In this document: piece by piece, positions 57,525 through 63,875 of the stretch
Position numbering within the stretch: the stretch's first letter is position 1
How the letters are laid out: each line of letters begins with the position of its first letter
NCBI RefSeq assembly: GCF_003018255.1
Contig: NZ_CP027440.1
DNA: 64,000 nucleotides
Direction: 5' to 3' (one strand)
Source: Escherichia coli
GTDB taxonomy: Bacteria > Pseudomonadota > Gammaproteobacteria > Enterobacterales > Enterobacteriaceae
The notes under the pieces: generated by a model
The model's input: the letters and a program-made list of their open reading frames with translations, nothing else
Told to the model about the DNA's origin: nothing
Database searches by the model: none
Program-made: the position numbers and the translations under genes

Positions 57525-60500
57525 ATGTCACGTTATAAAACAGACAATAAACAGCCACGATTTCGTTATTCAGTTCTGGCCCGCTGCGTGGCGTGGGCAA
57601 ATATCTCTGTTCAGGTTCTTTTTCCACTCGCAGTCACCTTTACGCCAGTAATGGCAGCACGTGCGCAGCATGCGGTTCAGCCACGGTTGAGCATGGAAAA
57701 TACTACGGTAACTGCTGATAATAACGTGGAGAAAAATGTCGCGTCGCTTGCCGCTAATGCCGGGACATTTTTAAGCAGTCAGCCAGATAGCGATGCGACA
57801 CGTAACTTTATTACCGGAATGGCCACCGCTAAAGCTAACCAGGAAATTCAGGAGTGGCTCGGGAAATACGGTACTGCGCGCGTCAAACTGAATGTCGATA
57901 AAGATTTCTCGCTGAAGGATTCTTCGCTGGAAATGCTTTATCCGATTTATGATACACCGACAAATATGTTGTTCACTCAGGGGGCAATACATCGTACCGA
58001 CGATCGTACTCAGTCAAATATTGGTTTTGGCTGGCGTCATTTTTCAGAAAATGACTGGATGGCGGGGGTGAATACTTTTATCGATCATGATTTATCCCGT
58101 AGTCATACCCGCATTGGTGTTGGTGCGGAATACTGGCGTGATTATTTGAAACTGAGCGCCAATGGTTATATCCGGGCTTCTGGCTGGAAAAAATCACCGG
58201 ATGTTGAGGATTATCAGGAACGCCCGGCGAATGGCTGGGATATTCGTGCTGAGGGCTATTTACCTGCCTGGCCGCAGCTTGGCGCAAGCCTGATGTATGA
58301 GCAGTATTATGGTGATGAAGTCGGGCTGTTTGGTAAAGATAAACGCCAGAAAGACCCGCATGCTATTTCTGCCGAGGTAACCTATACACCAGTGCCTCTT
58401 CTGACACTGAGCGCCGGGCATAAGCAGGGCAAGAGTGGTGAGAATGACACTCGCTTTGGCCTGGAAGTTAATTATCGGATTGGCGAACCTCTGGAAAAAC
58501 AACTCGATACAGACAGTATTCGCGAGCGTCGAATGCTGGCAGGCAGCCGCTATGACCTGGTTGAGCGTAATAACAATATCGTTCTTGAGTATCGCAAATC
58601 TGAAGTGATCCGTATTGCTCTGCCTGAGCGTATTGAAGGCAAGGGCGGCCAGACGGTTTCCCTGGGGCTTGTGGTCAGCAAAGCAACTCACGGTCTGAAA
58701 AATGTGCAATGGGAAGCGCCGTCTTTGCTGGCCGCAGGCGGAAAAATTACGGGGCAGGGCAATCAGTGGCAAGTGACGCTCCCGGCTTATCAGGCAGGCA
58801 AAGACAATTATTATGCGGTTTCAGCGATTGCCTACGATAACAAAGGCAATGCCTCGAAACGTGTGCAGACAGAAGTGGTTATTAGCGGAGCTGGTATGAG
58901 CGCCGATCGTACGGCGTTAACGCTTGACGGTCAGAGCCGTATTCAAATGCTTGCTAACGGTAATGAGCAAAAGCCGCTGGTGCTGTCTCTGCGCGACGCC
59001 GAGGGTCAGCCAGTCACGGGCATGAAAGATCAGATCAAGACTGAACTAACTTTCAAACCGGCTGGAAATATTGTGACTCGTTCTCTGAAGGCCACTAAAT
59101 CACAGGCAAAGCCAACACTGGGTGAGTTCACCGAAACTGAAGCAGGGGTGTATCAGTCTGTCTTTACTACCGGAACGCAGTCAGGTGAGGCAACGATTAC
59201 TGTTAGCGTTGATGGCATGAGCAAAACCGTCACTGCAGAACTGCGGGCCACGATGATGGATGTGGCAAACTCCACCCTGAGCGCTAACGAGCCGTCAGGT
59301 GACGTGGTTGCTGATGGTCAGCAAGCCTACACGCTGACGCTGACTGCGGTGGACTCCGAGGGTAATCCGGTGACGGGAGAAGCCAGCCGCCTGCGACTTG
59401 TTCCGCAAGACACTAATGGTGTTACCGTTGGTGCCATTTCGGAAATAAAACCAGGGGTTTACAGCGCCACGGTTTCTTCGACCCGTGCCGGAAACGTTGT
59501 TGTGCGTGCCTTCAGCGAGCAGTATCAGCTGGGCACATTACAACAAACGCTGAAGTTTGTTGCCGGGCCGCTTGATGCAGCACATTCGTCCATCACCCTG
59601 AATCCTGATAAACCGGTGGTCGGCGGTACAGTTACGGCAATCTGGACGGCAAAAGATGCCAATGACAACCCTGTAACAGGCCTCAATCCGGATGCACCGT
59701 CATTAGCGGGTGCCGCTGCTGTAGGTTCTACGGCATCGGGCTGGACAAATAATGGTGATGGGACGTGGACTGCGCAAATTACTCTCGGCTCTACGGCGGG
59801 TGAATTAGAAGTTATGCCGAAGCTAAATGGACAGGATGCGGCAGCAAACGCGGCAAAAGTAACCGTGGTGGCTGATGCATTATCTTCAAACCAGTCGAAA
59901 GTCTCTGTCGCAGAAGATCACGTAAAAGCCGGTGAAAGCACAACCGTAACGCTGGTGGCGAAAGATGCGCATGGCAACGCTATCAGTGGTCTTTCGTTGT
60001 CGGCAAGTTTGACGGGGACCGCCTCTGAAGGGGCGACCGTTTCCAGTTGGACCGAAAAAGGTGACGGTTCCTATGTTGCTACGTTAACTACAGGCGGAAA
60101 GACGGGCGAGCTTCGTGTCATGCCGCTCTTCAACGGCCAGCCTGCAGCCACCGAAGCCGCGCAGCTGACTGTTATTGCCGGAGAGATGTCATCAGCGAAC
60201 TCTACGCTTGTTGCGGACAATAAAACTCCAACGGTTAAAACGACGACGGAACTCACCTTCACCGTGAAGGATGCGTACGGGAATCCGGTCACCGGGCTGA
60301 AGCCAGATGCACCAGTGTTTAGTGGTGCCGCCAGCACGGGGAGTGAGCGTCCTTCAGTAGGAAACTGGACAGAGAAAGGTAATGGGGTCTACGTGTCGAC
60401 CTTAACGCTGGGATCTGCCGCGGGTCAGTTGTCTGTGATGCCGCGAGTGAACGGCCAAAATGCCGTTGCTCAGCCACTGGTGCTGAATGTTGCAGGTGAC

Positions 60501-63005: not shown

Positions 63006-63875
63006 GTGGAATTTTCCGTATTAAGTAACAATCTGAAAATGCCGATGATGGGATTTGGTGTTTTTCAGGTTACCGATAAAAACGTGTGCAAACAGTCAGT
63101 GTTGAACGCTATCCGCACGGGTTATCGACTCATCGACACTGCAGCGGTATACGGTAATGAAGATGCCGTCGGTGAAGCCGTTCGTGAAGCTATATCTGAA
63201 GGTTTATGTACCCGAGATGAGTTATTTATAACGTCTAAATTGTGGGTGCAGGATATGTTGAATCAGGATACGGCAGCAGCAGGTATTGAAGCATCATTAA
63301 AAAAATCGGGACTAGAGTACTTCGACCTCTATTTATTGCACCAGGCTATGCGCGATTATTTCAGTGCGTGGCGTGCACTCGAAGATGCCTATGAAGAGGG
63401 CAAATTAAAAGCAATTGGGGTTTCCAATTTCTATCCTCATGTTCTGGCGAACTTTTGTGAAACGGTAAGAGTTAAACCGATGGTCAACCAGGTCGAGTTG
63501 CATCCCTATTTTGCCCAACCAGAGGCGCTGGCAACCATGAAGTATTATAACGTGCAGCCTGAAGCATGGGCTCCGTTAGGTGGTGGACGACATAAACCCT
63601 TTGAAAATAATCTGCTTCAGAGTATTGCAGATGCCCATCAAAAATCGATTTCTCAAGTCATTCTGCGTTGGAATATTCAACGGGGAGTGGTCGTTATTCC
63701 GAAATCGACACATCAACAGCGTATCGAAGAAAATTTTGCTATCTGGGATTTCTCACTGACAGAGAAAGAAATGGCACAAATTAGTTCGCTTGATTTGGGT
63801 TATGTTGGGGAGTCGGTAAAACATTTTAATCCTGAATTTGTTCGTGGTTGTCTTGCTGTAAAAATACATGATTGA
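63006..63875 (+). CDS. aldo-keto reductase (ykgQ-like), start probably GTG
   Basis: ORF track starts at ATG 62991, but GGAGGG lies 7 nt before GTG 63006, giving an N-terminus (M)EFSVLSNNLKMPMMGFGVFQ that fits AKRs. Confidence 0.7.
   Translation: MEFSVLSNNLKMPMMGFGVFQVTDKNVCKQSVLNAIRTGYRLIDTAAVYGNEDAVGEAVREAISEGLCTRDELFITSKLWVQDMLNQDTAAAGIEASLKKSGLEYFDLYLLHQAMRDYFSAWRALEDAYEEGKLKAIGVSNFYPHVLANFCETVRVKPMVNQVELHPYFAQPEALATMKYYNVQPEAWAPLGGGRHKPFENNLLQSIADAHQKSISQVILRWNIQRGVVVIPKSTHQQRIEENFAIWDFSLTEKEMAQISSLDLGYVGESVKHFNPEFVRGCLAVKIHD

Follow-up and report, generated by a model that had tools for sequence, protein, structure and literature searches.

In the MG1655 annotation of Escherichia coli K-12, eaeH, ykgA, ykgQ and ykgP are all listed as pseudogenes and an IS3A element lies between eaeH and ykgA. 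The question raised by the corresponding part of the 64,000-nucleotide stretch of E. coli DNA analysed here (hereafter the window) is whether the genes it carries are truly intact and, if so, how the damaged K-12 state relates to them. We can say with high confidence that the window contains a normal, undamaged chromosomal fdeC locus from an E. coli strain with affinity to genomes of the phylogroup-B2 type; over the 20 kb upstream of the locus, identity is 99.7% to strain JNE23-011 and about 99% to genomes of the LF82 type. The initial annotation had read an intimin-like adhesin, an AraC-family regulator and an aldo-keto reductase as intact versions of genes disrupted in K-12, and the coordinates of its three open reading frames (57525-61775, 61900-62790 and 62991-63875) were reproduced exactly.

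The adhesin gene, fdeC (57525..61775, + strand), starts with an ATG and is unbroken in the ORF list over 1416 codons, encoding an inverse-autotransporter (type Ve) adhesin identified from Pfam and from alignments with RefSeq and PDB sequences. Against three FdeC entries of RefSeq, each 1416 aa long, the alignment shows 0 gaps and 1366-1393 of the 1416 residues identical (96.5-98.4%), and the FdeC crystal fragment PDB 4E9L aligns without gaps over aa 595-1008 at ~98% identity, with about eight substitutions. The claim of an uninterrupted frame free of any insertion sequence is therefore upheld by the ORF list and by these gap-free alignments, and the hidden frameshifts that could have overturned it were looked for against reference FdeC and none was found. 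The orthologous gene is annotated fdeC by RefSeq and, judged from its sequence, the protein is a member of the FdeC orthologue group, given its barrel-first layout, its Ig-like passenger, its identity and its chromosomal position.

The Pfam analysis of the three proteins returned a barrel followed by an Invasin_D3/Big_1 passenger, an AraC-type regulator and an Aldo_ket_red domain. In FdeC, the beta-barrel translocator occupies aa 76-350 (57750..58574, + strand; IAT_beta, E=4e-109, profile positions 3-279 of 279), and aa 113-357 are also hit by the barrel structures of invasin and intimin (4E1T and 4E1S). It is followed by a first Ig-like domain resembling intimin D00 (aa 358-462; 58596..58910, + strand), which is matched by the intimin structure PDB 6TQD over aa 358-466 with E=5e-12. 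The remainder of the protein (aa 463-1416; 58911..61772, + strand) consists of nine tandem bacterial Ig-like (Big) domains of ~100 aa, delimited with Pfam and with an HMM seeded with one domain and iterated on FdeC itself, and it was along the whole chain that Pfam counted, besides IAT_beta, nine Invasin_D3 stretches and four Big_1 stretches. The nine units, each detected by the self-HMM with E <= 1e-26, span aa 463-575, 581-680, 686-783, 789-885, 891-991, 999-1090, 1095-1193, 1201-1298 and 1306-1416, which bears out the protein-level repetitiveness noted at the outset for the Ig-like array. Pairwise identity among them is 15-45% (mean 26%), and a search for repetition in the DNA of fdeC turned up nothing beyond short matches of the kind expected by chance; the array is not recent but goes back to ancient duplications of the domain. 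Counting the D00-like domain together with the nine repeats gives ten Ig-like domains, in agreement with the 10 Big domains reported for FdeC (Heinz 2016, PMC4943183). For the barrel family and for four of the FdeC Ig-like domains, solved structures exist.

A hydrophobic stretch at the FdeC N-terminus, read by eye, would act as the signal sequence carrying the protein through the inner membrane, after which the 12-strand-type beta-barrel (aa 76-350) would insert in the outer membrane and would export and display the rod (aa 358-1416), which is made up of ten Ig-like domains. The FdeC passenger of other strains promotes aggregation and biofilm formation. An adhesin function for the protein encoded in the window is suggested by analogy, being taken from the literature on the FdeC family: recombinant FdeC of other strains attaches to epithelial cells as well as to collagens I, III, V and VI, its constitutive expression in K-12 leads to adhesion and aggregation, and contact with host cells induces its expression (Nesta et al. 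2012, PMC3324786). Assembly of FdeC is assisted by the TAM (Heinz 2016, PMC4943183).

Downstream of the adhesin gene and convergent with it lies the intact ykgA homologue (61900..62757, - strand), encoding a Rob-like AraC/XylS-family regulator of 285 aa. The longest frame (61900-62790, - strand) gives 296 aa from a GTG at 62790, and the RefSeq-type start is the ATG at 62757. The protein is identical to RefSeq WP_000621012.1 at 284 of 285 positions with gaps at the N-terminus only, so that the regulator, described from the beginning as full length, is gap-free apart from the choice of start. Pfam detects HTH_18 and HTH_AraC together with a GyrI-like domain, the residues 2-106 align with the structures of SoxS, RamA and MarA, and two helix-turn-helix motifs are present in one ~100-aa DNA-binding domain, as is characteristic of the MarA/SoxS/Rob group. 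The Rob structures 1D5Y and 7VWY align with the regulator from end to end (E~5e-39), and its NCBIfam RobA scores are below the equivalog cut-offs (194.7 against 380 for NF012228 and 173 against 426 for NF011701); despite the shared architecture it is not Rob itself, and the full-length alignment combined with the sub-cut-off scores makes it a Rob paralogue.

The third gene, the intact ykgQ homologue (63006..63875, + strand), encodes a DkgA-like aldo-keto reductase of 289 aa. Here too the open frame is slightly longer (62991-63875, + strand; 294 aa from an ATG at 62991) and the RefSeq-type start is a GTG at 63006. The Pfam Aldo_ket_red domain is full length (E=5e-43), the solved structure nearest to the protein is 1VP5, a 2,5-diketo-D-gluconate reductase (E=2e-84), and the catalytic residues Asp44, Tyr49, Lys79 and His112 are present when aligned with it. 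The protein is identical to WP_001299025.1 over 289 of 289 residues with gaps at the N-terminus only; this, with the catalytic tetrad, bears out its description as full length. Its assignment as a DkgA equivalog was rejected (234.5 bits against a cut-off of 425).

The regulator and the reductase are separated by a divergent intergenic region of 40% GC (62758..63005), and the gene layout suggests how they could work together. The regulator, with its double helix-turn-helix and its GyrI-like ligand-binding domain, is transcribed divergently from the gene of the DkgA-like reductase, a carbonyl reductase dependent on NAD(P)H; the regulator may sense a small molecule and then activate the adjacent reductase gene. 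On the basis of gene arrangement, a ligand-responsive regulator activating its adjacent reductase is the most likely reading of the pair. Scanning 62758-63005 for marbox-like sites gave none with at most 2 mismatches, and our search of the literature on ykgA and ykgQ found no functional study.

Transcription of fdeC itself probably depends on the AT-rich region upstream of it (56960..57524, + strand; 37.7% GC), which is likely to carry the promoter and regulatory region. A consensus promoter scan of 56900-64000 returned counts at or below chance. The title of Easton et al. 2014 names H-NS and temperature as regulators of fdeC, and repression by H-NS is attributed to that study. At the other end of the gene, RNA folding places three stable hairpins (61795-61827, 61837-61872 and 61873-61896) in the 124 bp that separate fdeC from the ykgA-like gene converging on it, with z-scores against shuffles of -8.1 on the + strand and -5.8 on the - strand. 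They are probably transcription terminators; a simple terminator scan of 56900-64000 did not flag them and gave counts at or below chance.

The Rob-like regulator could also act on fdeC, either in addition to the reductase gene or instead of it, which would tie the display of the adhesin to a chemical signal. Its gene adjoins fdeC, marbox-type sites are bound by members of its family, and a marbox-like 19-mer with 1 mismatch lies at 57292-57310, 215 bp upstream of the fdeC start, the same 19-mer being found in K-12 and in three other strains. However, the consensus matches the window at chance frequency (17 matches against 17.1 expected), the regulator gene is convergent with fdeC and not divergent from it, and our literature search on the regulator found no published link to fdeC, so that we consider such control improbable and treat the match at 57292-57310 as a lead only. 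Even less probable, in our estimate, is the more elaborate possibility that a small molecule originating from the host or from stress is sensed by the regulator, which then co-regulates the reductase and FdeC, linking adhesion to chemical stress. A candidate ligand under co-regulation would be a reactive carbonyl or a quinone that the adjacent reductases detoxify. The allele classes of the regulator are sharply divergent at its ligand-binding end and, if co-regulation were true, these classes could represent different ligand specificities between lineages of E. coli. Many genomes keep fdeC and the regulator without the reductase, an observation that argues neither for nor against control of fdeC. 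Activation of the adjacent reductase gene by its divergently oriented regulator is the reading that we retain.

One could also suspect that one of the three genes is a cryptic pseudogene, with a concealed frameshift, an incorrect start or a catalytic residue missing, given that the longest-ORF and RefSeq starts disagree for the regulator (296 against 285 aa) and for the reductase (294 against 289 aa). These disagreements are merely alternative upstream start codons, and against RefSeq homologues none of the three proteins has an internal gap. Their Pfam domain profiles are all spanned end to end and the reductase keeps its catalytic tetrad. Identical proteins occur elsewhere, that of fdeC on 58 contigs in NCBI, under the name 'intimin-like adhesin FdeC', that of the regulator on 494 contigs and that of the reductase on at least 1000. 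This suspicion is thus largely refuted and very unlikely to be correct, and we take the three genes as intact.

The K-12 side of the comparison was resolved by blastn of the window against K-12, by inspection of the junction sequences and from the K-12 annotation. These agree that eaeH, ykgA and ykgQ are disrupted in K-12, as had been proposed, and the alignment identifies the three window genes as their intact counterparts. K-12 matches the window up to position 58400, where IS3A starts, and the match resumes at 62097, meaning that the element stands in place of 3,696 bp (58401..62096). What K-12 lacks there is fdeC downstream of about codon 292, everything that lies between the two genes, and the last ~65 codons at the 3' end of ykgA. 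The eaeH/ykgA lesion of K-12 is accordingly an IS3-associated deletion and not a simple insertion of the element. K-12 ykgQ is what is left of the reductase gene after two separate internal deletions, which blastn and the junctions place at 63022..63606 (585 bp) and at 63656..63746 (91 bp), the latter flanked by the 9-bp direct repeat GATTTCTCA. Further upstream, K-12 lacks the sequence at 53605-56973 in the window, and ykgP is the remnant at that junction. The missing portion includes the whole upstream module of the variable 'fdeC cluster' (54126..56959), in which Pfam recognizes a LysR regulator (54126-55061, + strand) and two aldo-keto reductases (55092-56081 and 56108-56959, both on the - strand).

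The order of these events may be read from strain MB07152, whose ykgP and ykgQ remnants are 99.8-100% identical to those of K-12, yet whose fdeC (1418 aa) and ykgA (283 aa) are intact. Since it carries the K-12-type remnants without the IS3 lesion, the IS3 event is isolated as the one that MB07152 does not have, and this strain likely resembles the K-12 locus before IS3. The loss of most of fdeC and of the end of ykgA in K-12 came with the IS3-associated deletion; the deletions in the reductase gene (ykgQ) and of the upstream LysR/reductase module (leaving ykgP) are older, were inherited by K-12 and are common to many E. coli.

In order to see which state prevails, we turned to a set of 5426 complete E. 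coli genomes. A megablast with 57000-64000 matched 5165 of them, the annotations under the matches listed being fdeC, helix-turn-helix domain-containing protein and aldo/keto reductase, and the three loci that were opened showed the same order, ykgR ... fdeC - regulator - reductase - rclCBA. The site at which IS3 interrupts fdeC in K-12 is uninterrupted in 4638 of the 5426 genomes and 4599 have the 3' end of the regulator gene, against 297 genomes with the K-12 eaeH::IS3 junction. The picture is different for the other lesions: the reductase segment deleted in ykgQ is present in 2949/5426 and absent from about 46%, the K-12-type ykgP junction occurs in 2830/5426, and the upstream LysR/reductase module reaches at least 80% coverage in 1885/5426. 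The ykgQ figures were obtained by querying the deleted segment, since counting the junction itself with 191 bp of query was unreliable: nearby pieces were joined, and intact genes also gave 100% coverage. Because the deleted segment is found in only 2949 genomes, the ykgQ-type deletion is widespread well beyond K-12 and, with the other deletions in about half of the set, only the IS3-associated event is rare. The intact fdeC is thus the common state and the broken K-12 version the exception. Published surveys report a complete fdeC in 84 of 126 genomes (Goh 2019, PMC6714894) and a prevalence of 82.6-100% across categories of non-laboratory isolates, with >91% amino-acid identity (Nesta et al. 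2012, PMC3324786).

The reverse scenario, in which the intact state is a gain through a horizontally acquired adhesin island and K-12 keeps the ancestral shorter form, could find some support in the divergence of the 7-kb locus (90-95% identity in most genomes, against 95-99% for the 20 kb upstream) and in the mosaic pattern of strain differences across it, but it is refuted by the structure of the K-12 remnants and has next to no chance of being right: the in-frame 5' and 3' remnants end exactly at IS3A, ykgQ and ykgP are internal-deletion remnants, one of them with a microhomology junction, and the intact configuration occupies the same chromosomal position in about 85% of genomes.

In extraintestinal pathogenic E. 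coli, FdeC has been studied as an adhesin and as a vaccine antigen. As the 1416-aa protein, its locus and the K-12 pseudogene that keeps only its N-terminal part have been described (Nesta et al. 2012, PMC3324786), and its prevalence reported (Goh 2019), the finding made here is already known, and the window adds only another fdeC allele, itself already deposited. Beyond correct annotation it has little significance. A useful by-product is the clearer history of the K-12 locus, which separates an IS3 deletion confined to the 297 junction-bearing genomes from ykgQ and ykgP deletions found in roughly half.

Among known systems, the window FdeC shares with intimin (EaeA) and Yersinia invasin an inverse-autotransporter barrel followed by Big domains. 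Intimin differs in having a LysM and a C-terminal lectin-like, Tir-binding domain (Intimin_C), neither of which Pfam detected in the window FdeC and, as described in PMC7718877, in having four Big domains and a lectin subdomain compared with the ten Ig-like domains of FdeC. An identity with intimin was rejected on these absent domains and on a score of 378.9 bits against the NCBIfam intimin equivalog cut-off of 1400. The reductase has in common with the DkgA/DkgB 2,5-diketo-D-gluconate reductases and with YvgN-type glyoxal reductases both the Aldo_ket_red domain and the Asp-Tyr-Lys-His tetrad, and the N-terminal double helix-turn-helix and C-terminal GyrI-like domain of Rob are both present in the regulator. 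The closest likeness is to FdeC as known from ECOK1_0290 of E. coli IHE3034 and from EaeH of ETEC H10407, with which the window protein shares its 1416-aa length, its domain order and its chromosomal neighbours; it differs from reference FdeC in allelic substitutions only, which are distributed as a mosaic when it is set against the nearest complete genomes.

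The ligand-binding end of the Rob-like regulator, the ykgA homologue at 61900-62757 on the minus strand, falls into two deeply diverged allele classes. In the segment 60774-62174, where fdeC and the regulator gene converge and which comprises their 3′ ends and the spacer between them, the window is just 75-88% identical to the allele of the K-12/MB07152 type, MB07152 being a strain with K-12-type ykgP and ykgQ remnants and intact fdeC and ykgA; the sequence adjoining this segment shows 95-100% identity to that same allele. We also found 1490 records in the 80-90% identity band for 61850-62300; two classes therefore exist, separated by about 20 substitutions and a two-amino-acid indel in the ligand-binding end.

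The comparison of fdeC and its upstream region (56916-61400) with the nearest complete genomes, at loci L002 and L003, reveals a mosaic in which the differences are grouped in blocks, at 56916-57900 against both loci, at 59166-59900 against L002 and at 60666-61400 against L003. Long identical stretches separate these blocks, a sequence pattern that suggests recombination between alleles. Upstream of fdeC, a marbox-like 19-mer (CTTGCACAAAAAGCTAAAT, 57292-57310) has one mismatch to the consensus used, and K-12 and three further strains carry it unchanged; across the whole window, the count of marbox-like matches is at chance level.

The fdeC cluster of the window's strain is itself partly decayed, since only a 242-bp remnant of a NADH-dependent flavin oxidoreductase gene is left at 53606-53847 (95% identical to L002 591-832) and about 2.1 kb is absent relative to strains DETEC-S792 and 746, namely the remainder of the oxidoreductase gene, an alpha/beta hydrolase and a first LysR regulator. 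The remnant is directly followed by 68 bases without a match (region 53606-53915), and the truncated arrangement is also present in strain JNE23-011. The deletions that define ykgQ and ykgP are not specific to K-12: among the 5426 complete genomes, the segment deleted in ykgQ (within 63022-63746) is absent from about 46%, and the ykgP-type junction, which in K-12 marks the loss of 53605-56973, is found in 52%.

Elsewhere in the window, a type VI secretion gene cluster (248-15487) includes a TssC-like sheath gene (5394-6869, minus strand), Hcp (8376-8894), VgrG (9104-11212) and, at 11279-15487, a DUF6531-containing Rhs protein of 1402 aa. The Rhs gene is closely followed downstream by three direct copies of an ISAs1-type/H-repeat transposase gene (DDE_Tnp_1 and DDE_Tnp_1_assoc; 16008-21012). 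These copies are spaced by 1752 and 1963 bp and share 97-99% identity across the 300 nt that were compared, the first being truncated (302 versus 378 aa).

The Rfam family naRNA4 (nucleoid-associated noncoding RNA 4) is matched twice, at 28439-28516 and 29175-29252. The tRNA-Thr(CGT) at 42140-42215 is directly followed by a DUF1440 gene (42836-43450) and then by an IS009 RNA match (43456-43656), with no island inserted behind the tRNA in this stretch of the window (42140-43656), whereas the LF82-type genomes, about 99% identical to the window's upstream 20 kb, carry there an additional 8 kb or so that includes vat.
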